This document shows, in pieces, positions 6,028-57,954 of a DNA stretch of 64,000 bases. A program made the translations under genes and the position numbers. Where the stretch lies: positions 24,056,001-24,120,000 of the forward strand of contig OZ024748.1 in NCBI GenBank assembly GCA_964016885.1, in the 5' to 3' direction. Numbering within the stretch: position 1 is the stretch's first letter; each line of letters opens with the position of its first letter. The stretch comes from Eledone cirrhosa. Taxonomy: Eukaryota. Under the pieces are notes generated by a model, which worked only from the letters and a program-made list of their open reading frames with translations, was not told where the DNA came from and searched no databases.

Positions 6028-6090
6028 GTACACACGCATACACGCACATAATAATACACAGAAACACACATAGATACAACTACAATAATT

Positions 6091-8280
6091 CAGAGGCACA
6101 CATACACACACATACAATAATACAGAGGCACACATACACACACATACAATAATACAGAGGCACACATACACATACATACAATAATACAGAGGCACACATA
6201 CACACACATACAACAATACAGAGGCACACATACACATACATACAATAATACAGAGGCACACATACACATACATACAATAATACAGAGGCACACATACACA
6301 TACATACAATAATACATTGGCACACATACACACACATACAACAATACAGAGGCACACATACACACACATACAATAATACAGAGGCACACATACACACACA
6401 TACAATAATACAGAGGCACACATACACACACATACACATACATACAGAGGCACACATACACACACATACAATAATACAGAGGCACACATACACATACATA
6501 CAATAATACATTGGCACACATACACACACATACAATAATACAGAGGCACACATACACACACATACAACAATACAGAGGCACACATACACACACATACAAT
6601 AATACAGAGGCACACATACACACACATACAATAATACAGAGGCACACATACACACACATACACATACATACAGAGGCACACATACACACACATACAATAA
6701 TACAGAGGCACACATACACATACATACAATAATACAGAGGCACACATACACACACATACAACAATACAGAGGCACACATACACATACATACAATAATACA
6801 GAGGCACACATACACACACATACAATAACACATTGGCACACATACACACACATACAATAATACAGAGGCACACATACACATACATACAATAATACAGAGG
6901 CACTCATACACATACATACAATAATACATTGGCACACATACACACACATACAATAATACAGAGGCACACATACACACACATACAATAATACAGAGGCACA
7001 CATACACATACATACAATAATACAGAGGCACACATACACACACATACACATACATACAGAGGCACACATACACATACATACAATAATACAGAGGCACACA
7101 TACACACACATACAATAATACAGAGGCACACATACACATACATACAATAATACAGAGGCACACATACACATACATACAATAATACAGAGGCACACATACA
7201 CATACATACAATAATACAGAGGCACACATACACATACATACAATAATACAGAGGCACACATACACATACATACAATAATACAGAGGCACACATACACACA
7301 CATACACATACATACAGAGGCACACATACACATACATACAATAATACAGAGGCACACATACACACACATACAATAATACAGAGGCACACATACACATACA
7401 TACAATAATACAGAGGCACACATACACACACATACAATAATACAGAGGCACACATACACACACATACAATAATACAGAGGCACACATACACATACATACA
7501 ATAATACAGAGGCACACATACACACACATACACATACATACAGAGGCACACATACACATACATACAATAATACAGAGGCACACATACACACACATACAAT
7601 AATACAGAGGCACACATACACACACATACACATACATACAGAGGCACACATACACATACATACAATAATACAGAGGCACACATACACATACATACAATAA
7701 TACAGAGGCACACATACACACACATACAATAATACAGAGGCACACATACACACACATACAATAATACAGAGGCACACATACACACACATACAATAATACA
7801 GAGGCACACATACACACACATACAATAACACATAGGCACACATACACATACATACAATAATACAGAGGCACACATACACATACATACAATAATACAGAGG
7901 CACACATACACACACATACAATAATACAGAGGCACACATACACACACATACACATACATACAGAGGCACACATACACATACATACAATAATACAGAGGCA
8001 CACATACACATACATACAATAATACAGAGGCACACATACACATACATACAATAATACAGAGGCACACATACACATACATACAATAATACAGAGGCACACA
8101 TACACACACATACAATAATACAGAGGCACACATACACACACATACAATAATACAGAGGCACACATACACACACATACAATAATACAGAGGCACACATACA
8201 CACACATACAATAATACAGAGGCACACATACACACACATACACATACATACAATAATACGGAGGCACACATACACACACA
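6091..8280. repeat. 32-bp minisatellite
   Basis: (CAGAGGCACACATACACACACATACAATAATA)n, highly homogeneous with interspersed variants. Confidence 0.95.
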
Positions 8281-9403: not shown

Positions 9404-9405
9404 TG

Positions 9406-9631
9406 TTTCTTTATTAGCCACAGGGGCACAAAAGAAGGGGACAAATACAAAGGGGGAAGTTTACATACAATAAAAACGTGTAAAATATTATCACAAATGC
9501 AATTTAAAAATTAGTCGATTTTCCCCAATAGGGGGAGACATTACATATGGGTAACACATACCCCCGAAAAAAAATGTGCAACCCTCATCTCCAGGAGTAC
9601 GAAGAGTTAGTACTCCTTTCCTCTCCTCCTC
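9406..9631 (-). mobile_element. 5'-truncated copy (3' UTR only) of the full-length Tx1-like LINE
   Basis: Reverse complement closely matches 31142-31368; flanked by (GA)n and (GATA)n. Confidence 0.9.
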
Positions 9632-9877
9632 TTAGATAGATAGATAGAAAGACAGACAGGGACAGACAGAAAGACAGACTGGGACAGACAGACAAAACAG
9701 ACATAGAGACATTGTCAAACAAACTACCAGACAGACAGATAAATAGCTAGACAAGCAAATAGAGAGAAAGGAAGAAGAAAAAATATAGATGGACAGATAG
9801 AATGGGTAAGTGAGAGAGAGAGTGAGTGAGAGAAAGAGAGAGAGAGTGAGTGAGTGAGAGAGAGAGAGTGAGTGAGT

Positions 9878-16347: not shown

Positions 16348-17225
16348 TACCATCAACACCACACCCACATCATACCATCTTCCCATCATACCATCAACAC
16401 CACCCACATCATACCATCTTCCCGTCATACCATCAACACCACACCCACATCATACCATCTTCCCATCATACCATCAACACCACACCCACATCATACCATC
16501 TTCCCATCATACCATCAACACCACCCACATCATACCATCTTCCCATCATACCATCAACACCACACCCACATCATACCATCTTCCCATCATACCATCAACA
16601 CCACACCCACATCATACCATCTTCCCATCATACCATCAACACCACCCACATCATACCATCTTCCCATCATACCATCAACACCACACCCACATCATACCAT
16701 CTTCCCATCATACCATCAACACCACCCACATCATACCATCTTCCCATCATACCATCAACACCACCCACATCATACCATCTTCCCATCATACCATCAACAC
16801 CACACCACATCATACCATCTTCCCATCATACCATCAACACCACACCCACATCATACCATCTTCCCATCATACCATCAACACCACCCACATCATACCATCT
16901 TCCCATCATACCATCAACACCACCCACATCATACCATCTTCCCATCATACCATCAACACCACCCACATCATACCATCTTCCCATCATACCATCAACACCA
17001 CACCACATCATACCATCTTCCCATCATACCATCAACACCACCCACATCATACCATCTTCCCATCATACCATCAACACCACACCCACATCATACCATCTTC
17101 CCATCATACCATCAACACCACCCACATCATACCATCTTCCCATCATACCATCAACACCACACCCACATCATACCATCTTCCCATCATACCATCAACACCA
17201 CCCACATCATACCATCTTCCCGTCA
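16348..17225. repeat. 39/41-bp minisatellite
   Basis: (ACCATCAACACCACCCACATCATACCATCTTCCCATCAT)n. Confidence 0.95.
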
Positions 17226-17284
17226 TATCTCTAACAACAACAACAGCAACAACAACAACAAAGTACCTTAAATACCATCGTTAA

Positions 17285-20930: not shown

Positions 20931-21825
20931 AGTATACGTACGTGCAGATATATACACGTATAAACATGTATATATGTGTATACACGTATGAAAATATATA
21001 CATTTTTATGTATATATACACATTTACACATAAATACACGTATACACACAGGAACAGACTTACATGCACATGCACACACACATGTATAGGATTAAGTGCA
21101 CATACACTAAAACCTATAGAGTTACATGTACATATACACACATGCATAGACTTTTGCACATAGACGAGTGTAGAAAAAGCTCTTGTAAACACATAAACAC
21201 ATGTTTACTCATACATATGTATACATACTATACACATACTTACACACACATACTCATACGCGTACATAGACAAACTCGCAAACACATACACATACACACA
21301 CTCACATAGAACTACTGCAAATCTTCATTATTGTCGATAAAATAAAGTACCAGTAATGTACTGGGTATTTGCTGGCCTTGTGCCTAAAATAGAAACAATT
21401 ATTTTATTTCACCTCCTCCATTTTCACACCAACTACTGTTAAAGTGACCATAACTGACCACTCCTTCATATATCACTTAAGCCACACACACCGCCGCCAT
21501 AACCATCACCACCATCACTGCCGCCATCATCACTACTACTACCACCACCACCAACACCAACACTACTACTACTACCGCCACCACCACCCCAAAACCACCA
21601 CCACCACCACCACCACCACCACCACCACTGTAGGTAGGAGTGTAGGTAGGAGTGTATGTAGGAGTGTATGATATCAGAGCAGAGAGGGGGTAATAGTGAT
21701 GTTGTTGTTGTTGGTAGTGTTGGTATGTAAATGTGTGTGGAAGAAAGAAAGGAGAGACCGACAGGTAGTGAGAGAACCAGATAAATAGATAGATAGATTG
21801 ATAGATATATAGATAGATAGATATG

Positions 21826-23665
21826 TTTCTTTTATTTGCCACCAGGGCATCAACAGTGGGACAAGTACAAAGGGGGGAGTTTACACAAAAAGGCGTCCTC
21901 AATAAGGAGGAGGCAATAACAAAATATAAAAATAAAATAAGATATAACAAAAAATAAAATTTATAACAAAATCCTCAATAGAGAGGAGGCGCCTTGGGGG
22001 GTCGCACACACCCCCGAAAAAAGTGTGCAACCCTTTTCCTCAGGAGCACAGAGAGGGCGTGCTCCCTCGTTCCTTCCTCTTTTCCACCTACAGGCTTATG
22101 TAAAGAGAAGGCCCATTCACACGGGCCATTCTCGCCACTTTCACCCACCTTTCATAAAAACGACTGGGGTGGAGCACCTCTCTCTCCATCCTGATCCTTC
22201 TTCCGAAATGATATCGGAAGAAACGGACCAGTTGTTGGCCAGATGATCCTTCTTCCGAAATGATATCGGAAGAAACGGACCAGTTGTTGGCCAGAGAGAA
22301 AGGTGCCTGACCTCAGTCCTTTCAGACGCGTCCACCATACAACCTCTTTCGCCATGGCTATTACGCACAGAAACACCGCCTCTGCTTCATCTTTGAAGGG
22401 GGGAGGCGGCTTGATCATTACAATAGACTCGGTGGTCAACCGGATCGGTCCCACCCTTGACAGCAGTTGTTCGACATAGCCCCACAGATCGGCTACGCCC
22501 GAGCAGTGTACCAATGCGTGTGCAACGGTTTCCTCGTCGCACACGCATCTGGGACAGATCTTTTTGGCGGGGTCCCTACCCGGGCGCCCGTGTCTGTAGA
22601 GCCTTTCTCGAACGGGTAAAGCCCCTCGGTAGCACTGCCAGGCCAGGGACTTCTGGAAGTTGTCCATAGGTCCCGGGCTGAATGTCCTACCGAACAGGCT
22701 GGCCAGTTCGTCCTCCTCCATGTCTAGGGCTTTTCCGAGGGCGTCGTCGCACCTGCTGCGTACCAGCCCTCTATAGAATGTTGCAGTGGAGTCTCCACTG
22801 ATAACCGGATCCGCCTGCCAGAGGGCGGTGAGCGCCTGGGCACACTCAGTGTGCCAGGCGCCCAGTTTTCTCGGTCTTTGCTTGACCCAGGATTGCAGCT
22901 CGGTGAGTGAGACGAGTCTGGGAAAGGTTCGTCTCACAAACGAGGCCCACACCGGTTGTCCGGTGAGGAATACGTAGAGGTGCCGTAGCCTTAATGCGTG
23001 TTTACGCATCATTAGACACGGCATCCCCAGCCCTCCTTTCGAAGGGTGTTGACAGCAGATGGATCTCCTCACCATAGGAGCCCGCCTCTTCCAAAGGAAT
23101 TGGAAGAGCGCGCGCTCCATCTTGGTGAGGGTTTCCCTTGGGCAGGGCACTACGGTCAGGCGGTAGTAGATGACGGACGCTATATAAGTGTTCGCCACCT
23201 CCGCCCGACCTTTCAGGGATAGTTTGCAACTGGCCCACTTCTGGGTCAGTGCAAACACCCTGTTCGTAACCTCCGCCCAGTTTTTCTCCACCTGGAGGTC
23301 CGGTCCGAACCAGACCCCGAGCAACTTCACCGGGCCCTCCGTCCAGCGTCCGACGACGCCATCGGAGGGCATCGGTCTGCCCCTCCACGTGCCGAGTTGC
23401 AAACCGATCGACTTGTCCCGGTTCAGCTTAGCCCCTGTGAACTTTTCGTACTCCTCCAGTAAGGTGCCGACCGCCTCGATTTCGGAGGCCGTCGACACCA
23501 TTACTGTCACGTCATCGGCGTAGGCTGACACCGCTTTCCGCAATCCCGGTTCCAAAGGGATGCCCTGCAACAACTCCAACTTCCGCAGTAGTGGCTCGAG
23601 AGTCAACACATACAGAAGGGAGGAGAGAGGGCACCCTTGTCGGATGGACCGCGCGATTTTGAACG
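21826..23665 (-). mobile_element. 5'-truncated Tx1-like LINE (sister subfamily): ORF2 C-terminal half plus 3' UTR
   Basis: Translation [14 protein letters not shown]...AYADDV...CPRCVCDEETVAHALVHC closely parallels ORF2 at 27694-31131; frameshifting ~52-bp tandem duplication near 22194-22295; (GATA)n at the 3' flank. Confidence 0.95.
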
Positions 23666-24040
23666 ACAGATAGAGGGACAGGTAGAGGGACAGGTAGAGG
23701 GACAGATAGAGGGACAGGTAGAGGGACAGATAGAGAGACAGGTAGAGGGGCAGATAGAGGGACAGGTAGAGGGACAGGTTGAGGGATAGGTAGAGGGACA
23801 GGTAGAGGGACAGATAGAGGGACAGGTAGAGGGACAGGTAGAGGGACAGGTAGAGGGACAGATAGAAGGACAGGTAGAGGGACAGATAGAGGGACAGGTA
23901 GAGGGACAGATAGAGGGACAGGTAGAGGGACAGGTAGAGGGACAGATAGAGGGACAGGTAGAGGGACAGATAGAGGGACAGGTAGAGGGACAGGTAGAGG
24001 GACAGGTAGAGGGACAGGTAGAGGGACAGGTAGAGGGACA
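23666..24040. repeat. 12-bp tandem repeat (GACAGGTAGAGG/GACAGATAGAGG)n
   Basis: Direct inspection. Confidence 0.95.
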
Positions 24041-25156
24041 GGCAGACAGATAGACAGATAGAGAGACAGACAGAGAGACAGATAGAGAGATATATAGACA
24101 GACAGAGAGACAGAGAGAAGAGACAGGCAGACAGAGAGACAGATAGAGAGACAGACAGAGAGACAGATAGAGAGATATATAGACAGACAGAGAGACAGAG
24201 AGAAGAGACAGGCAGACAGAGAGACAGATAGAGAGACAGACAGAGAGACAGATAGAGAGATATATAGACAGACAGAGAGACAGAGAGAAGAGACAGGCAG
24301 ACAGATAGACAGATAGAGAGATATATAGACAGACAGAGAGACAGAGAGAAGAGACAGGCATACAGAGAGACAGATAGAGAGACAGACAGAGAGACAGATA
24401 GAGAGATATATAGACAGACAGAGAGACAGAGAGAAGAGACAGGCAGACAGAGAGACAGATAGAGAGACAGAGAGAAGAGACAGGCAGACAGAGAGACAGA
24501 TAGAGAGACAGACAGAGAGACAGATAGAGAGATATATAGACAGACAGAGAGACAGAGAGAAGAGACAGGCAGACAGATAGACAGATAGAGAGATATATAG
24601 ACAGACAGAGAGACAGAGAGAAGAGACAGGCATACAGAGAGACAGATAGAGAGACAGACAGAGAGACAGATAGAGAGATATATAGACAGACAGAGAGACA
24701 GAGAGAAGAGACAGGCAGACAGAGAGACAGATAGAGAGACAGAGAGAAGAGACAGGCAGACAGAGAGACAGATAGAGAGACAGACAGAGAAACAGATAGA
24801 GAGATATATAGACAGAGAGACAGAGAGAAGAGACAGGCAGACAGAGAGACAGATAGAGAGACAGACAGAGAGACAGATAGAGAGATATATAGACAGACAG
24901 AGAGACAGAGAGAAGAGACAGGCAGACAGAGAGACAGACAGGCAGACAGGCAGGCAGACAGGCAGACAGACAGACAGACAGATAGACAGATAGACAGAGA
25001 GAGAGAGACAGAGAGACAGAGAGACAGAGAAACAGACAGGCAGGCAGACAGAGAGACAGATAGGCAGGCAGATAGACAGAGTGAGATAGATAGATAGAGA
25101 GAGAGAGAGACAGAGAGATATACATGCAGAGAGAGAGAGAGAGGGGGGGAGTGAGA

Positions 25157-25202
<46 letters not shown>

Positions 25203-25208
25203 GAGAGA

Positions 25209-25258
<50 letters not shown>
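24041..25258. repeat. GACA/GATA/GA-derived ~85-bp minisatellite grading into (GA)n
   Basis: GAGAAGAGACAGGC anchor recurs at about 85-bp spacing, with shorter variants. Confidence 0.85.
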
Positions 25259-25260
<2 letters not shown>

Positions 25261-25743
25261 TATTGTATGTTGATGGGGGATGGTTGGTGAGATATAATTA
25301 TAACACCTTGCCATTGTAGGGGGCAGATATGTGTTAGTAGGGCTGTAATAAAAGGGAGTTTGTAAGGTAATAGAGGAGGTGTGTGTTGGGTTGGATAACA
25401 GACACAGATTAGCCAATCAATGGCCTTCAGAAATTTGGTCATGATCCCTGCTAAACAAACCCTTTCTTGCTCTATCTATTTATCTATCTATCTGTCTATG
25501 TCTATCTATCTATCTATCTCTCTATCAGTCGTGTGTCACTTCGCGGAGAAGTTTCCGTTAATTTATGTAAGGAAAAAACGTGAGTTTTTAGTTCAATTTT
25601 ATATCATTGTGTAACTTGACCACCCGTCTGGACCTTCAGGTGGTGGGTCAACTCATTTTCGCCCCTTCAGGGGCGGAATATCCATTTAAAAAATTTTTCT
25701 CCATCGAATCTTGGAAAAAATATTGTAAAATTTTGATTACGTT

Positions 25744-27660
25744 ATGAACGCTGCGTCCAACGATAATGGTGGTGGAGAGGCGGTAAGACTACAAAGCTCG
25801 CAGTCAACAACGTCTTCTTCACTAGATACTATAGAGATGGAAAGACAAAATGAAAATAAAAAAACGAATTCACATCCAAACAACACAAATGACACCAAAC
25901 AGCTCAATGACAACAAAAATAACAGCAAAACCAATAATGATGATAAAAGCAACAATGATAACAACAACAAAGAAAAAAATAAAGACAACGCCAATAACAC
26001 CAGCATCAAAGACAACAACAACACCAAGGAAAATACGGATGATACCAACATCGGTGACAACAAGAATAACAACAAGAATAACAACAATAATGACAACACC
26101 ACCAATACGGATTCCACAAAGAAACCAAAAATCTCCTTTGCGGAGAAAGTTCAAAAGAAAGAACAATTGATATATCTCGACATAACAAATGCTGAACACC
26201 TTTTAAAGGACGCTAAGAGATATGTCACCTTCGAAAAAAATGGTGCTTTCAGTATCAATTCTCCGGTAGAAATTCGCAAGGAAACTGCTCTCAAAACGAT
26301 AGTTTTTAGGACAGTTTCCAATTCTACCCGAAAACCAGTCCAATTGTCACAGAAAGATATTGAACTGGTTTTCAAAGATTCAATGAATGATATTGCATTC
26401 ATTCAAAGAAGCAAACTTTTTGGGAGTATTTCGGTACTGATGAAGGATCAATTGACGGCCCAAAATTACTCTGTGTCGCCAATTGTATCCAACCTGTACA
26501 CCTTTTTCCCTACATACATGGGAAAAAGGACACAAAAGATCAGAATCACAAGTGTCACACCAAAGGTGAACATATGGTGGATACTGTGCGGCTTCATCAA
26601 TTTTGATGAAGACAGAATACTGTCAGTAGGCAAGTCCCCCAGAGATGTATTCAATGGGACTAGCATTGAAGTTCTGGTGCAAATGAGCCCAGAGCGAATA
26701 GCTATGATCCCACAGCGTGTACTTCTGGACGGACTTACCTACATAAACCTTTCGGTTGAGGGTAGGCGGCCTTCATGTTACCATTGCTTTAGCAGGGGTC
26801 ACCTGAGGGCTTCCTGTCCTAAACTAATGAACCAAAAAAAGGCTCTTCTGCCAACACCCATCAAAACAACACAACCACCAACACCACCACTACAACAACA
26901 ACACCAACACACAAAAATAACCACAACAAACACAGTCCCACCCAACCTCACTCCACCTAAAACCACTGCAAAATCACATACAGACACAACAGCTCCCCAA
27001 GACATACCCCTCCCCAATCACACAGACGATACAACAGATGAGGCTATCTCGCCATCACCCAGTGAAGACGAGGGAGAACCCCATCGCTCGAAAAGAAAGA
27101 AAAGACATCACAAAAGCAAAAAACCAGCAAACACTACCACAAACATACAACCACCAACACAAACAACAAAAATATCACAAACAAAACCCCCACCTCCTGA
27201 AAACAAAATACCTACAACAAAACGAAAGCACACACAAGAACTACAGACAAAAACAAACACAACACAAGAAAATTACACTTACACTTACATAAACACTGAA
27301 AACAAAACACTAATGGAGACCATTACGAACGACCCTTCGGTTTTCACCGAAGGGAAAACTTTCGCCCACTCTATAAAAAATAGCAAAAAAATGAACCTAA
27401 AACTGATTAGGGTCCCTATACAAACTTATAGGTCCCTAAAAGAAACATTTGAGAAGGATGTGGGGAATTCCTGCGTGAAACCACTCAACCGCGTCCTTCT
27501 CAAATACCTCCCCACCCCAGACACCCCCATTCCACCAGACCCCACCCCACCAAACATCTGCGTCCCCACCCCGCCGGAAACCACCACCCATCCAGACAAC
27601 CCCTCCAACACCCCCATGGAAATCGTGCGGCCTGGTCCCCAGGAGGCGAAGGGTGAGTGA
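25744..27660 (+). CDS. LINE ORF1, gag-like nucleic-acid-binding protein, 638 aa
   Basis: CCHC knuckle CYHCFSRGHLRASC, Asn-rich N-terminus, Pro/Thr-rich C-terminus; lies directly upstream of ORF2. Confidence 0.9.
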   Translation: MNAASNDNGGGEAVRLQSSQSTTSSSLDTIEMERQNENKKTNSHPNNTNDTKQLNDNKNNSKTNNDDKSNNDNNNKEKNKDNANNTSIKDNNNTKENTDDTNIGDNKNNNKNNNNNDNTTNTDSTKKPKISFAEKVQKKEQLIYLDITNAEHLLKDAKRYVTFEKNGAFSINSPVEIRKETALKTIVFRTVSNSTRKPVQLSQKDIELVFKDSMNDIAFIQRSKLFGSISVLMKDQLTAQNYSVSPIVSNLYTFFPTYMGKRTQKIRITSVTPKVNIWWILCGFINFDEDRILSVGKSPRDVFNGTSIEVLVQMSPERIAMIPQRVLLDGLTYINLSVEGRRPSCYHCFSRGHLRASCPKLMNQKKALLPTPIKTTQPPTPPLQQQHQHTKITTTNTVPPNLTPPKTTAKSHTDTTAPQDIPLPNHTDDTTDEAISPSPSEDEGEPHRSKRKKRHHKSKKPANTTTNIQPPTQTTKISQTKPPPPENKIPTTKRKHTQELQTKTNTTQENYTYTYINTENKTLMETITNDPSVFTEGKTFAHSIKNSKKMNLKLIRVPIQTYRSLKETFEKDVGNSCVKPLNRVLLKYLPTPDTPIPPDPTPPNICVPTPPETTTHPDNPSNTPMEIVRPGPQEAKGE

Positions 27661-27693
27661 TCTCTTTTCCTCTTTTAACTTTTCAGCACCAAC

Positions 27694-30600
27694 ATGGCCA
27701 ATATAAGAGTTGGATGTGTGAACGTACGCGGCCTGGGGATGCCCTGGAAACAGGGCAAACTCTTAAACGACCTCAGGTCACACAGTTTGGATGTGGTAGC
27801 CATTTGCGAGTCCAGGATCCACGGCGAGCGACAGCTGGCCCCCATCTTCGATGACTTTGAGATCTACGCATCTCTCTGTCAACCGGGGGGTGGGGGCGGA
27901 GTTGCCGTTTTGCTGCGGAAACACCTGGGCCTCGTAACACAGACGGTACATCTGGACCCGGAGGGTCGACTGGTGGTCCTAGACGTTGACGGTAGTGAAG
28001 GTGGAGCCTTCAGGCTGGTGGCCGCATATGCCCCATCCGGGACACCGCGGCCAGACTTCTTCAAACGTCTAGAGACTTTTCTGGGAACGTCCCGCTCCTT
28101 GCTTTTAGTGGGGGACTGGAATGGAATCCTAGATGCACGTTGGGACTATGTGGGAGCATGTCCCGACAAAGGGGGGTGTAACAGCCTCAAACAGTTAATC
28201 GACCGATTTGACCTGGCCGATAGATATCGACTAGATTTTCCGACTGCGCCAATGTGGACGTGGAGTAATCGCAGCGGAACATCTAGATCGTACCTAGATA
28301 GGGTTCTAGTTAGAAATAAGGATAGGGACATGTTAAGCTGTCCACAAATGTTCATGGTTGCCTATTCAGATCACAAACTAGTGACCTGCATGGCCAACCT
28401 TGATAGAACCCATAGACAAGGACCCGGCTACTGGAAGCTGAACTTGTCGTTACCGACAAGCAAAGCCTACAGTAGACGGATTAGCACTTTAGTTAAACAG
28501 CACTTGACAGGGGCCATTGTCAACAACAGATGGTGGTACTCTCTCAAGAGGGCAGTTAGATTAGACTCGATAGTTTTTAGTAAAGAATTAGCGTTAGATA
28601 GAAATAGAACCGAGAAGGAACTGGTAGATAAAGTAGAAGAGGCAATTAGAAGTGGCAACGTAGCCAGCGTGCTAGCAACGAGAACGGCCTTGGACCAGTT
28701 CTTCGACGCAAAGCACGAGGGCTGCGTTGTCAGAAGCAAAATACGTGCTCTGGGAAACGAGGGAGCCAAAGCTGTTAGCTGGGCCCGAGTGACGGAGGCA
28801 AAAAGTGGCAACAAGTCCACGATTCGGTCTTTGAAGGACCAAAACGGACGCGTGATACGTGAGCCGAAGCAGATGTGTGCGGCTTTTCAGCGGCACTTTG
28901 CTCGGCTGTTCGGGGGGAGCGGCGCGCCGGGAGAGGCTATGGATTTCGGTCCATACCTCGACGGCCTACCGCGACTCTCGGACAGTGGGGCGAAGTTCTG
29001 CGAAAAGCTGATTTCAGCCACTGAGATAGGGGACGCGCTGAGCCAATGCGGCAAACGCAAATCTCCAGGTCTCGACGGTCTACCCTACGAATTTTACGTA
29101 GCAATGCCGGACTTATTCTCCGGTCTCCTGGAAGCGGTCTACTGCAACTGGCAACAGAACGGGAGAATTCCCAGTTCTGTAGCCGGGGGCGTGGTCACAC
29201 TAATCAGGAAGGACGAGAATAAGGGGGATGACATAGGCAACTTCCGGCCCATAACTCTGCTAAACACAGAGTTACAGATTTTGGCCAAGGTGTTGGCAAA
29301 GAGGCTGGCGCTTGTCGTCGAGAACCTGGTGGGAGAAGCGCAGACATGCGCGATCCCGACCAGGTCCATACACGACAACCTCCACCTCATGCGATACATC
29401 ATAGAGAGGGTAGGGTGTAAACCCGGCTTCGGTGGGGCCCTGATCAACTTGGATCAGTCTAAGGCTTTCGATAGGGTTGACCATCATTACCTGGATGCGG
29501 TGCTCGAGGCGGCAGGCTTCGGACCCGTGTTCAGGGGCTGGATTGCTGCAATGCACAACAGCAACATCTGCTCAAGGGTCAAGGTGAACGGTTACCTCTC
29601 GGAGCCGTTCCATATTACGCGATCCATTCGACAGGGATGCCCTCTCTCCTCCCTTCTGTACGTACTGACTCTCGAGCCACTACTGCGGAAGCTGGAGCTA
29701 TTGCAGGGCATCCCTCTGGAACCGGGACTGCGGAAAGCGGCGTCGGCCTACGCCGACGACGTGACAGTAATGGTGTCGAGCGCCTCGCAAATCGAGGAAG
29801 TCGGCACCTTACTAAAGGAATACGAAAGTCTCACAGGAGCGAAGCTGAACCGGGACAAGTCCATCGGTTTGCAACTCGGATCGTGGAGAGGCAGACCGAT
29901 GCCTTCCGATGGCGTCGTCGGACGCTGGACGGAAGGACCGGTAAAGCTGCTCGGGGTCTGGTTTGGTCCGGACCTCCAGGTGGAGAAGAACTGGAACGAA
30001 GTGACGGCCAAGGTGTTTGCACTCACCCAGAAGTGGGCCGAGTGCAAACTATCCTTGAAAGGTCGAGCGGAGGTGGCGAACACTTTTATAGCGTCCGCCA
30101 TCTACTACCGCTTGACCGTCGTGCCTTGTCCAGCCAAAACGCTCGCCAAAATGGAGCGCGCCCTCTTCCGATTCCTTTGGAAGAGGCGGGCTCCTTTGGT
30201 AAGAAGATCCATCTGCTGCCAACACCCTTCTAACGGAGGGCTGGGGATGCCGTGGTTGACGATGCTCAAACACGCGCTCAGGCTGCGGCATCTCTACGTA
30301 TTCCTCACCGGACAACCGGTGTGGGCCCCGTTCGTGAGGCGAGCCTTCCCACGACTCGTCTCGCTGACCGAGCTGCAGTCCTGGGTCAAGCAGAGACCGA
30401 GGAAAATGGGCGACTGGCACATCGAATGTGCTCAGGCGCTCACAGCCCTCCGGCAGGCGGACCCAGCGATCAGTGGAGACTCCACTTCGTCATTCTATAG
30501 AGGGTTGGTCCGCAGCAAGTGCGACGACGCGCTCGGTGAAACTCTAGGCGTGGAGGAAGATGAACTGGCCAGTCTGTTCGGTAGGACCTTCCGCCCGGGA

Positions 30601-31131
30601 CCGATGGACAACTTCCAAAAGTCCCTGGCCTGGCAGTGCTACCGAGGAGCTCTACCAGTTCGAGACAAGCTCTACAGACATGGGCGCCCGGGCAGGGACC
30701 CTGCAAAAAAGATCTGTCCGAGGTGCGTGCGAGACGAAGAAACCGTCGCGCACGCATTCATACACTGCCCGGGCGTCACTGACCTGTGGGGCTATGTAGA
30801 ACGACTATTGTCGCGGGTGGGACCAATCCAGTTGACCACCGAGTCCATTGTCATGATCAAACCGCCACCCTCCTTCAAAAACGAAGGAGAGGCGGTTTTC
30901 CTTTGTGTGATAGCTATGGCGAAAGAGGTTGTATGGTGGACAAGGTTGAAAGGGCTGAGGTCAGACACCTTTCTCTCCGGCCAACAACTGATTCTTTTTT
31001 TCAAATACCACTTTGGAAGAAGAATCAGGATGGAGAGAGAGGTGCTGTACCCCAGCAAGTTTTATGAAAGGTGGGTGAAAGTGGCGAGAATGGCCCGAGT
31101 GAATGGGCCTTCTCTCTATATCAGCCTGTAG
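27694..31131 (+). CDS. LINE ORF2: APE endonuclease, reverse transcriptase and C-terminal zinc finger, 1145 aa
   Basis: Endonuclease motifs NVRGL, GDWN, LDRV, SDH; RT motifs PGLDG, FRPITLLN, LDQSKAFDRV, RQGCPLS, YADD; CPRC...ETVAHAFIHC. Confidence 0.98.
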   Translation: MANIRVGCVNVRGLGMPWKQGKLLNDLRSHSLDVVAICESRIHGERQLAPIFDDFEIYASLCQPGGGGGVAVLLRKHLGLVTQTVHLDPEGRLVVLDVDGSEGGAFRLVAAYAPSGTPRPDFFKRLETFLGTSRSLLLVGDWNGILDARWDYVGACPDKGGCNSLKQLIDRFDLADRYRLDFPTAPMWTWSNRSGTSRSYLDRVLVRNKDRDMLSCPQMFMVAYSDHKLVTCMANLDRTHRQGPGYWKLNLSLPTSKAYSRRISTLVKQHLTGAIVNNRWWYSLKRAVRLDSIVFSKELALDRNRTEKELVDKVEEAIRSGNVASVLATRTALDQFFDAKHEGCVVRSKIRALGNEGAKAVSWARVTEAKSGNKSTIRSLKDQNGRVIREPKQMCAAFQRHFARLFGGSGAPGEAMDFGPYLDGLPRLSDSGAKFCEKLISATEIGDALSQCGKRKSPGLDGLPYEFYVAMPDLFSGLLEAVYCNWQQNGRIPSSVAGGVVTLIRKDENKGDDIGNFRPITLLNTELQILAKVLAKRLALVVENLVGEAQTCAIPTRSIHDNLHLMRYIIERVGCKPGFGGALINLDQSKAFDRVDHHYLDAVLEAAGFGPVFRGWIAAMHNSNICSRVKVNGYLSEPFHITRSIRQGCPLSSLLYVLTLEPLLRKLELLQGIPLEPGLRKAASAYADDVTVMVSSASQIEEVGTLLKEYESLTGAKLNRDKSIGLQLGSWRGRPMPSDGVVGRWTEGPVKLLGVWFGPDLQVEKNWNEVTAKVFALTQKWAECKLSLKGRAEVANTFIASAIYYRLTVVPCPAKTLAKMERALFRFLWKRRAPLVRRSICCQHPSNGGLGMPWLTMLKHALRLRHLYVFLTGQPVWAPFVRRAFPRLVSLTELQSWVKQRPRKMGDWHIECAQALTALRQADPAISGDSTSSFYRGLVRSKCDDALGETLGVEEDELASLFGRTFRPGPMDNFQKSLAWQCYRGALPVRDKLYRHGRPGRDPAKKICPRCVRDEETVAHAFIHCPGVTDLWGYVERLLSRVGPIQLTTESIVMIKPPPSFKNEGEAVFLCVIAMAKEVVWWTRLKGLRSDTFLSGQQLILFFKYHFGRRIRMEREVLYPSKFYERWVKVARMARVNGPSLYISL

Positions 31132-31420
31132 GTTGAGGAAAAGGAGGAGGAGAGGAAAGGAGTACAAGCTCTTCGTACTCCTGGAGATGAGGGTTGCACA
31201 TTTTTTTCGGGGGTCTGTGTTACCCATATAAACTGTCTCCCTCTATTGGGGAAAATCGACTAACTTTTAAATTCCATCTGTGATAACATTTTACACGTTT
31301 TTATTGTATGTAAACTTCCCCCTTTGTATTTGTCCCCTTCTTTTGTGCCCCTGTGGCTAATAAAGAAATATATCTATCTGTCTATGTCCATCTATCTATC
31401 TATCTATCTATCTATCTATA

Positions 31421-31480
<60 letters not shown>

Positions 31481-31484
<4 letters not shown>

Positions 31485-31858
31485 ATTTCGGAAGAAGGAT
31501 CAGGATGGAGAGAGAGGTGCTGCACCCCAGCCGTTTTTATGAAAGATGGGTGAAAGTGGCGAGAATGGCCCGTGTGAATGGGCCTTCACTCTACATCAGA
31601 CTATAGGTGAGGAAGATGAAAGATCAAGGAGCTCCTGAGGAGAAGGGTTGCACACTTTTTTCGGGGGGGGGTGCGACCCCCCCAAGGCGCCTCCTCCCTA
31701 TTGAGGATTTTGTTATTAAATTTATTTTTGTTATATTTTATATATTATTTTTATATTTTGTTATTGCCTCCTTCTTATTGAGGACGCCTTTTTATGTAAA
31801 CTCCCCACATTGTACTTATTCCACTATTTGATGCCCTGGTGGCAAATAAAAAGAAAGT
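31481..31858 (+). mobile_element. 5'-truncated sister-subfamily Tx1-like copy in the same TATC array
   Basis: Matches the ORF2 end and 3' UTR of the 21826-23665 copy; TATC repeats on both sides. Confidence 0.9.
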
Positions 31859-54509: not shown

Positions 54510-54592
54510 AGTTTTAGTTTTATTTCTTTATCTATTTGTATTGTCTTTGTATTGTCCCCTTTCTTGTTGCGCCCTTGTGGCTAATAAAGAAA
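54510..54592 (+). mobile_element. Very short Tx1-like 3' terminus followed by TCTATCTA
   Basis: TTTGTATTGTCCCCTT...GCCCTTGTGGCTAATAAAGAAA resembles 31323-31368. Confidence 0.75.
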
Positions 54593-55084
54593 TCTATCTA
54601 TTTGACAGACAACAAAGCTCCTCCTAACTGAAAGAGAAATATTGAAAGCCAGTTTATTATTGTTTTGTTTAGTGTCTCCAAACTAGATAATACCGGAGCT
54701 CAATATAAAATCTCAAAATTTAGTATCTCAATACCTGGTGTGTTGTCAGATTGGTGAGTCCACACAAGCCACATCCTTATTGGAGTAGAGGTACTTCGCT
54801 AGCCACTTCGGAAATGTATCAAGATACATGACAGGGTTGGCTAACTATCTAGCTAACCAGTTACTCTGCTGAAAGATATAAACGTCCTTGAAGTATTTTT
54901 TTTTTAATAAGACTCGGTTGCTCCAGGAACATGAGAAAAGTTTGAAAATCTGGAATGTGTGAAATCTATCGAAGAAATGAAGAAATATCAGTGAACTGTT
55001 CTCATATTGTAACAAAAGAGACAACATCTCCCGGTATTTATTGCAGGGGCAAAACAAAACAAAAAGATTGGAATGGATCTTCGT

Positions 55085-56455: not shown

Positions 56456-56774
56456 TTTTTTATCATTATTGATATTTCTCCTGTCATGTCCTCCGTTATT
56501 GCTGTTTAACCAATGGAACGGCGTTGTTTCACTTCTTACAAACTCCATATTTTTTCAGAACTGGGTCATTGGAAATAGTTTGATGTCTATATTGTAGTAA
56601 TAGCTAACAATATAACACTGATGATGACGACGATGATGATGAGAAGAAGAAGAAGAAGAAGAAGAAGAAGAAGAAGAAGAAGAAGAAGAAGAAGAAATGG
56701 TGATGGTGAGAGTGGGAGCGACATTTGAGATATAAAGTTGGAAAAAGAAGTTAATGAGGGCTAATAATAATAAT

Positions 56775-56871
56775 TGTTTCTACTTTAGGCACAAGGCCAG
56801 CAATTATCCAGTGCATTACTGGTACTTTATTTTATCGACCCCGTAAGGATGAAAGGCAAAGTCAACCTCGG
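56775..56871 (-). mobile_element. 5'-truncated young SINE A at a CTAATAATAATAAT target
   Basis: Flanked on both sides by GGCTAATAATAATAAT. Confidence 0.9.
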
Positions 56872-56885
56872 CTAATAATAATAAT

Positions 56886-57424
56886 GATTTCATTTATTGG
56901 CCACAAGGGCCGACATGTAGGGGACAATACAAAGACAAGGACAGTGGGAGGTTTACAATAAGGTGGAGTAAAAGTGTACAATGGCAAGACTAATTTAACA
57001 ATGAAGATATAAAAATATAAAATAAACTATGCATAAATATAACAAAATAAATTCCCCTACAGGGGGTGGACGACCCTGGGGTGACTCAGGTACCCCACCA
57101 ATCCTGAACCACCCTGCGCTTCTAGGGCACCCAGGGAGAGCACCTCTCTCCTCAAATTAGTTAGCCTATAGGCGCATAGTCAGAGTAGGCCCATTCACAC
57201 GGGCCATTCTCGCCACATTCATCCACCTTTTAGCAAATGTACTGGGGGGCAGCACTTCTCTCTCCACCCTCACCTTCCTTTCCAGGTGAAACTTGAAGAA
57301 GTTGATGAGGGAAAAGTGTCTTCAGTCCTTTCAATCTGGTCCACCATATAACCTCTTTCGCAACTGCCTCCAGATAGAGGAAAATAGCCTGCTCTTCCTG
57401 GCCAAAAGGCGGTGGCGGGTCGAT
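56886..57424 (-). mobile_element. 5'-truncated Tx1-like LINE of an (ATT)n-associated family
   Basis: GGCCCATTCACACGGGCCATTCTCGCCAC is identical to the ORF2 end of the other copies (VARMARVNGP); different 3' UTR; TSD CTAATAATAATAAT. Confidence 0.85.
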
Positions 57425-57495
57425 CTAATAATAATAATCATAATTATTTTTTTTTTTTTTTCATTATCATTAGTATTATTATTATTGCTATTATT

Positions 57496-57745
57496 GTAAA
57501 TTAAAGGTGGAAAACTGGGAGAGGGCACTTGCCCTGGTGGTCAGGGCCACTGTGGTCTTTTAATGGGCTTTCTCCACAAATGTCCCTCGGAAGTCTCCCC
57601 CCTATTGGGGAATTTTTTCTTTGTTATTTTATTTCATCCTCTGTTTTTTTTTACACGCAGAAATGCCCATTTGTACCGTCCTGTATTGTCCTGTACTGTC
57701 CTTAATGTCTACTTTATGTAAACCCTTGTGGTTAATAAAGAAAAC
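57496..57745 (+). mobile_element. Tx1-like 3' UTR fragment in (ATT)n
   Basis: CCCCTATTGGGG and CCCTTGTGGTTAATAAAGAAA terminus; 18-bp TSD ATTATTATTGCTATTATT (57478-57495 / 57746-57763). Confidence 0.8.
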
Positions 57746-57954
57746 ATTATTATTGCTATTATTATTAGTATTATTATTATTATTATATATATATATATAC
57801 ATTTTTTTTTTAAATTCCAGATTTCTTACCTACTCTTTCATTCTTTCCCACTCACTCTTTCAATCGATCTCTTTCATTATCACCCTTTATCTCTCTCTCT
57901 TTCACACCCTTTCTTCATTCATCCATTTTCTTTCATTCTTTCTTCCTTCATTTT

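Follow-up and report, generated by a model that had tools for sequence, protein, structure and literature searches.

Retrotransposons of the Tx1 clade that have settled in microsatellites are known from teleosts, in which Kibi occupies (TC)n and Koshi (TTC)n, and from crocodilians, whose elements occupy (TTCC)n/(TTTC)n (as reported in the accessible parts of PMC4494074 and PMC3812793), while (TAA)n has been described as the target of Dong (PMC3812793). The route by which APE-type retrotransposons acquire microsatellite targets is regarded as not well understood (in the portion available of PMC3812793), and the accessible text of the curated Octopus vulgaris annotation reports 13 recently active L1-Tx1 families with their targets unmentioned (PMC13282606). 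In the literature searched we found no description of Tx1-type elements with ATT, TATC or TGTC targets, some of which may be listed in Repbase, in Kojima and Fujiwara 2004 or in supplement tables.

In the window (i.e. the whole 64-kb stretch of DNA that was analysed) two LINE copies of what we term the ATT lineage lie within (ATT)n, with their 5' ends pointing toward each other. Element A (56886..57424, minus strand) is a 5'-truncated Tx1-like LINE that consists of an ORF2 end and a 3' UTR; it keeps the last ~80 codons of ORF2, which are 72% identical at the nucleotide level to the ORF2 end of the TATC element in the same window (E 2e-35), as the original prediction had claimed for one of the two copies. 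Element B (57496..57745, plus strand) is a copy of the 3' UTR only, starting at the ORF2 stop of its family. The family of A is the older one (top genome matches 90-92% identical) and that of B is young (98-100%). Both copies end in a predicted 3' RNA hairpin (GGCC-CTTGT-GGCC at 56899..56911 on the minus strand, followed by AATAAA and GAAA, in A; AACC-CTTGT-GGTT at 57721..57733 on the plus strand in B). The terminus pattern occurs seven times in the window against 0.85 expected (none of 100 shuffles reached seven), two of the occurrences being A and B and the other five copies in TATC context, including the full-length one, so that the predicted pair of truncated head-to-head copies with a common terminus is real. 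The head-to-head layout reflects two ATT tracts in opposite orientation, about 40 bp apart, and is no sign of a joint mechanism.

Both of the target-site duplications that had been described as clean were recovered, and the adjective suits them unequally. The 14-bp duplication of A (ATTATTATTATTAG; 3' copy at 56872..56885 and 5' copy at 57425..57438, minus strand) is nearly pure repeat, and the last 1-2 bases of its 5' copy fit the element too; on account of this composition and microhomology, only the 18-bp duplication of B (ATTATTATTGCTATTATT; 5' copy at 57478..57495 and 3' copy at 57746..57763, plus strand), which contains a GCT interruption, is informative alone. The 3' copy of A's duplication doubles as the 5' duplication of a 5'-truncated SINE (56775..56871, minus strand) that ends in TGGC-CTTGT-GCCT, 6 nt, GAAA, 2 nt and ATTAT and is absent from the original prediction. 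As a third copy of the 14-mer (56761..56774, minus strand) closes the SINE on its 3' side, A and the SINE must have inserted successively at one site.

The architecture of these elements can be read from the comparator copies in the window, foremost from T1 (25527..31370, plus strand), a full-length TATC-lineage element with an ORF1 (25729-27660, plus strand) and a stop-free ORF2 (27679-31131, plus strand) that encodes APE endonuclease, RT and zf-RVT domains. In Pfam, PF03372 and PF00078 were present in T1 and in family B, the zf-RVT match of T1 stood at its cut-off, and ORF1 had no significant match; its CCHC knuckle (CX2CX4HX4C) was read directly. Stacked behind T1 is a truncated TATC-lineage copy of family T2 (31484..31858, plus strand), and another truncated T2 copy lies in TATC (21824..23666, minus strand), with a short tandem duplication within its ORF2 end (about 22190-22295); these two copies and a short T1 copy (9404..9632, minus strand) have approximate 5' ends. 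A T4 copy of 56 bp (54539..54594, plus strand) has a duplication of 10 bp (TATCTATTTG) and lies outside any microsatellite array. At 22152-25475 a repeat tract runs on in frame into an ORF2 fragment, and the resulting 1,107-aa frame is no gene. The window is very rich in microsatellites and holds homogeneous minisatellites as well (a 32-bp unit repeated 69 times with 94% matches at 6033-8252, and a 39-bp unit repeated 22 times with 96% matches at 16348-17227).

Long genome copies of families A and B have a T1-like layout and an ORF2 that is ~67-70% identical to that of T1, the nearest protein relatives being 37-44% identical; among solved structures T1 ORF2 comes closest to human L1 ORF2p (E 2e-49), with R2 ranking lower. 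The elements combine 5' truncation and target-site duplications, an ORF2 in which an N-terminal APE domain is followed by RT, a CCHC finger at the C-terminus of ORF2 and a separate ORF1 with a zinc knuckle, all as in L1/Tx1-type non-LTR retrotransposons. Furthermore, the motif of the lineage is present at 96% and 91% of 3' flanks, where over 20% of flanks is the measure of target preference for Tx1 (in the accessible part of PMC4494074). Architecture and targeting would together place them in the Tx1 clade.

We searched the genome (3.0 Gb) for the terminus and obtained 40,562 exact matches (20,670 forward and 19,892 reverse; control 72 and 70, i.e. 142), which amounts to about 13 ends per Mb. 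On the forward strand, (ATT)3 follows 7,125 of the 20,670 ends and (TATC)2 follows 6,162, with 0 in the control (forward counts were used, since the variable gap makes reverse counts of repeat-flanked ends double-count). The loci L001-L270 and the window gave 303 ends, from which 7 without a reference match and 67 duplicates were removed. In the remaining 229 (a sample biased toward the best BLAST hits, with family labels assigned in this analysis) the ATT-lineage families A, A2, B and C carry ATT at the 3' flank in 114 of 119 cases, and the TATC-lineage families T1-T6 carry TATC in 100 of 110 (TA in 6, ATT-like in 2 and other sequence in 2). The genome-wide association between 3'-UTR type and flanking motif, put forward with the original prediction as its test, is therefore strong. 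When ends were taken in positional order along one chromosome, the first 30 comprised 16 of ATT type, 13 of TATC type and 1 chance match. In the window, AC and AT arrays greatly outnumber the preferred repeats (112 and 128 vs 5 ATT and 10 TATC arrays), and despite this not one copy of the 229-end sample was assigned to an AC array and no more than 6 to TA. The proposed partitioning of microsatellites among sister LINEs thus stands as a split between lineages but not at a finer grain: with at least four families on ATT and at least seven on TATC (among them T7, a separate TATC family with the end TAGAAA), there is no scheme of one family per repeat. The split is coarser than proposed, with at least 12 families and three targets. 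A zf-RVT search for more distant families returned only ATT-lineage copies among the 30 of 150 matches read.

Several features of the junctions bear on how the elements came to lie in these repeats. The 5' junction lay within the fetched locus for 112 of the 229 ends; it carries ATT in 34 of 54 ATT-lineage copies (TATC in 2) and TATC in 46 of 58 TATC-lineage copies (ATT in none), giving a Fisher p of 5e-21 for copies that are not independent, and many of the misses look like later internal breaks. The duplications are mostly about 10-20 bp long and copies stack in tandem; where a duplication is interrupted (L031, L034, L061, L077, L108) it starts at most 1-2 nt from the element end, without extra repeats. 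The presence of the motif at 5' junctions, together with duplications that start at the element end, argues that the repeat is a pre-existing target and not a tail. The opposite view, that the arrays are the elements' own slippage-made tails (as in L2, CR1 and RTE) and that later copies land in earlier tails, could draw on the many 5' flanks formed by the end of another LINE or SINE, and on ATT-lineage arrays that tend to be longer at the 3' than at the 5' side (median 29 vs 21 nt in 22 copies, p 0.21, not significant). We judge it very improbable, since the repeat is not confined to the 3' side as in tail-adding LINEs, the motif stands at the 5' junction even of singletons with unique upstream DNA (e.g. 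L028, L034, L049, L165), interrupted duplications agree on both sides, and TATC-lineage arrays are longer at the 5' than at the 3' side (30 vs 19 nt in 29 copies, p 0.003). This last asymmetry looks as if nicking took place near one array edge.

A near-random insertion, followed by preferential survival in tolerant repeat-rich DNA, would suit so microsatellite-rich a window. It is refuted, and hardly credible at all, given the fixed strand and register (positions 1-6 past the element end are 93-99% invariant) and the lineage-specific motifs, and given that 30 identical young T1 copies are nearly all at TATC already. Taken together, these observations favour the reading that A and B are 5'-truncated LINEs of L1/Tx1 type and that the lineages sit in their own repeats, likely through a nick made by their own endonuclease, to which we assign a probability of roughly 0.65. 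As separate observations, other repeated sequences recur directly past ATT tracts (L018, L035, L038, L049, L053 and others), L131 and L133 have upstream, on the opposite strand, an RT with about 27% identity to T1, and a copy of A is interrupted in L153 (1285-3198, oriented) by a 638-aa frame that is 20% identical to T1 ORF2 and belongs to another kind of retroelement.

A third target became apparent from ends followed by (TGTC)2 (approximately 215 genome matches), which mostly belong to one young (TGTC)n family, G (loci L301-L320 and L324-L340). Its full-length copies measure 5.6 kb and are tandemly stacked, and ORF2 is stop-free in 10 fetched loci. The 5' junction carries TGTC in 18 of 23 copies (in 3 of the 5 misses it lies beyond the locus), a proportion that is no unbiased estimate of specificity because the copies were picked by their flank; the unselected loci contained no G end and 6 ends of the TATC relative T7. 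L317 and L318 hold yet another family, whose hairpin differs (NRTG) and whose ends run into mixed TGTC/TATC. In a whole-ORF2 tree (18 family rows, P0004 and 3 outgroups of about 40% identity; quick search with SH-aLRT supports) the ATT families are united in one clade (96), the TATC and TGTC families in another (95), within which G is sister to T2 (93) and T7 comes next (100), so that two target changes suffice. Since G is nested among TATC families, its TGTC target is derived from TATC; since the ATT and TATC families are sister clades, the change between these two motifs has no direction. Of the switched specificity that had been claimed, the difference in targets between lineages thus holds, but a switch toward ATT is not established. 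In a tree of RT only, A groups with the TATC families (70), and ATT monophyly is not rejected (p-AU 0.36); as the conflict between endonuclease (EN) and RT trees is not significant (p-AU 0.36 and 0.055), we make no claim of an endonuclease swap by recombination. P0004, a public protein that shares 70% identity with T1 ORF2, is placed within the ATT clade, from which it follows that the lineage is present outside this assembly or in a further record of the species.

The modelled T1 endonuclease (pLDDT 92.9) has its best structural match in human L1-EN (Z 29.5, rmsd 2.2 over 228 residues), and residues T194-S204, of equal length in all families, align with the minor-groove hairpin of L1-EN, which enters the groove at +1 to +3 (as described in the part available of PMC8565326). 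Between the two large lineages, position 199 (L1 P197) is Ser in the TATC and G families, where the ATT families have Met or Ile, position 157 (L1 R155) is Tyr in the TATC and Cys in the ATT families, and the 120-123 loop is uniform in the ATT families and variable in the TATC families. Columns diagnostic of ATT vs TATC account for 16.9% of the positions in EN and 5.6% in RT, the EN/RT values for two other splits being 9.7/10.0 and 8.9/5.2; this enrichment is suggestive only.

The step in the series that has a direction is the one from TATC to TGTC: the two classes differ by one target base and by 24 endonuclease residues, one of these at a conserved hairpin position. This residue, 198, is Arg in all 29 ATT reads and in 16 of 18 TATC reads (single copies have Leu and Ile), and His (8) or Asn (24) in the 32 TGTC reads, which represent one clade with at least one copy read twice; 8 reads without a classed flank gave 5 Arg, 2 His (both from one G copy) and 1 Cys. 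Its codons run from CGT/CGC through CAT to AAC, the G copies that branch off earlier having His. Three of the 125 near-invariant EN columns changed, and residue 198 is the sole one of them in the hairpin; D38N and V103L changed on the same branch, and such columns changed at a similar rate in the linker (4 of 133) and in RT (3 of 189). The base pair that differs is located 3 or 4 nt beyond the inferred nick (itself placed to within one base), at the limit of the +1 to +3 reach. Arginine favours the minor grooves of A:T pairs and clashes with the amino group of guanine. Nevertheless, the link between residue 198 and the target is one lineage event, and CGT to CAT is a CpG hot-spot change, which counts against causality. 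Moreover, L1-EN is reported to read the shape of DNA more than its bases, with point mutants that retained specificity (in the accessible part of PMC1950540), and its hairpin loop to account for two base pairs at most (likewise in PMC8565326).

On the side of the RNA, all families end in a stem of 3-4 bp, a loop of 5 nt, AATAAA, GAAA and 2 nt, without poly(A). The SINE (with internal A- and B-box-like motifs identified by eye) shares the LINE hairpin loop and the spacing found in B, on an altered stem, i.e. the common 3'-terminal structure of a stringent SINE/LINE pair. In 16 representatives, both partners have changed in three of the four stem pairs (with a covariation of 0.34 compared with 0.11 after shuffling, from only 4 pairs in related rows under a structure chosen by the analyst). 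The SINE end has at least 243,665 exact genome matches, of which 191,005 are followed by in-register ATTAT and none by TATCTAT; in the window, copies lie at 56775-56871, 1045, 18969, 21374, 35134, 49579, 10705, 63167 and 915. Its duplications begin at ATTAT and extend into unique DNA (on the basis of 29 of 30 loci). To judge from the shared end and target, the ATT lineage probably mobilises this SINE, although another ATT-inserting LINE may be the partner; the literature searched yielded no description of this pairing. SINE arrays are shorter than those of ATT LINEs (median 6 nt in 30 copies vs 21 nt in 15 copies, p 3e-6). If the same enzyme serves both, about 6 nt of ATTATT are enough for it, and the endonuclease alone fails to explain the difference.

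This difference in array length keeps the pairing of RNA and primer alive, as a rival or a helper of the endonuclease. As a rival it would have the target set mainly by the RNA: a loose endonuclease shared by the lineages would cut, read-through of 10-20 nt into the microsatellite of the donor would pair with the nicked strand, and each lineage would inherit its landing motif, the changes in the enzyme coming after. AATAAA sits 6-9 nt before the element end and no copy has poly(A), as such read-through would lead one to expect. A nick at a pyrimidine-purine step is compatible with each of the three targets (AAT/R, GAT/A, GAC/A), with C or T preceding the SINE duplication in 12 of 12 cases read by eye; LINEs need longer arrays than the SINE; and such pairing has been proposed for L1 (in the part available of PMC1950540). 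The confinement of SINE ends to ATTAT is expected if the SINE tail picks the site, but equally so if only ATT-lineage enzymes carry the SINE. We consider it unlikely that RNA is the main determinant, since the diagnostic columns of ATT vs TATC are denser in EN than in RT beyond the two alternative splits, interrupted duplications contain no additional RNA-templated units, and Tx1L-EN is sequence-specific in vitro (as given in the accessible text of PMC1950540). Among the sequence contigs listed, which cannot show RNA ends, no G-to-A variant was seen in the TGTC flank, an absence that favours neither reading.

We infer that target choice belongs to the endonuclease and not to base pairing by the 3' end of the RNA. 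Under this preferred reading, the endonuclease of each lineage would nick its own repeat for target-primed reverse transcription, probably on the strand that reads AAT, GATA or GACA, and its hairpin loop would probe the minor groove beside the nick. The small 3' RNA hairpin (4-bp stem, 5-nt loop) would position the RNA such that RT is predicted to start at a fixed 6-9 nt past AATAAA, while pairing of the nicked strand with a few units of repeat at the 3' end of the RNA likely adds to the choice. Ser199 vs Met/Ile, Tyr157 vs Cys and the 120-123 loop are candidates for the distinction between TATC and ATT, and the loss of Arg198 (to His, then Asn) may have admitted a G:C pair and so moved one family from TATC to TGTC. 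The full proposal, in which the sister LINEs form a target series, the step from TATC to TGTC was caused by Arg to His to Asn in the hairpin, and the same machinery recognises a 13-nt RNA hairpin in place of poly(A) and drives the SINE, is tentative and, taken as a whole, rather doubtful. On the other hand, the idea of a natural series for the study of endonuclease specificity holds, for stop-free ORF2s exist in all three target classes and differ at hairpin positions. With the three classes available as young stop-free elements, the question of enzyme or RNA end, and of the residues responsible, reduces to a few swaps, and the series bears on the engineering of site-specific insertion tools. 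A microsatellite-targeting lifestyle of Tx1 elements is already known; it is the TATC to TGTC step, with its candidate residue, that gives the present series its value.

Dong belongs to the R4 clade, whose elements have a restriction-like endonuclease, unlike the elements described here, which carry an N-terminal APE domain. It is alike in using the same microsatellite as the ATT lineage (to judge from the part available of PMC3812793). Closer in kind are Kibi, Koshi and the crocodilian Tx1 elements, which as far as the accessible sources describe them are likewise APE-type L1/Tx1 LINEs in microsatellites, with related families on different units; they differ by target, the families found here lying in (ATT)n, (TATC)n or (TGTC)n and not in (TC)n, (TTC)n, (TTCC)n or (TTTC)n, and a single genome harbours stop-free ORF2s of each of the three classes. 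Pairs of SINEs and LINEs have been described for SINEU and Tx1-Mar, which have a common target (in the accessible part of PMC4494074), and for stringent L1-clade pairs of maize and Chlamydomonas, which have a common 3' hairpin (likewise in PMC3747384); unlike either, the animal SINE reported here has in common with its presumed LINE both the target and a hairpin whose loop and spacing are identical, and this without poly(A). Finally, the endonucleases share their fold and hairpin with those used in the Xenopus Tx1L-EN/L1-EN grafts, down to the anchors (T192/S202 there, T194 and S204 here; PMC1950540, PMC8565326, as far as these are accessible). Grafts of hairpin loops between such distant enzymes have had an ambiguous outcome (according to the part available of PMC1950540); unlike them, the present families offer, from sequence alone, a loop of L1 length and single-residue natural differences between targets.
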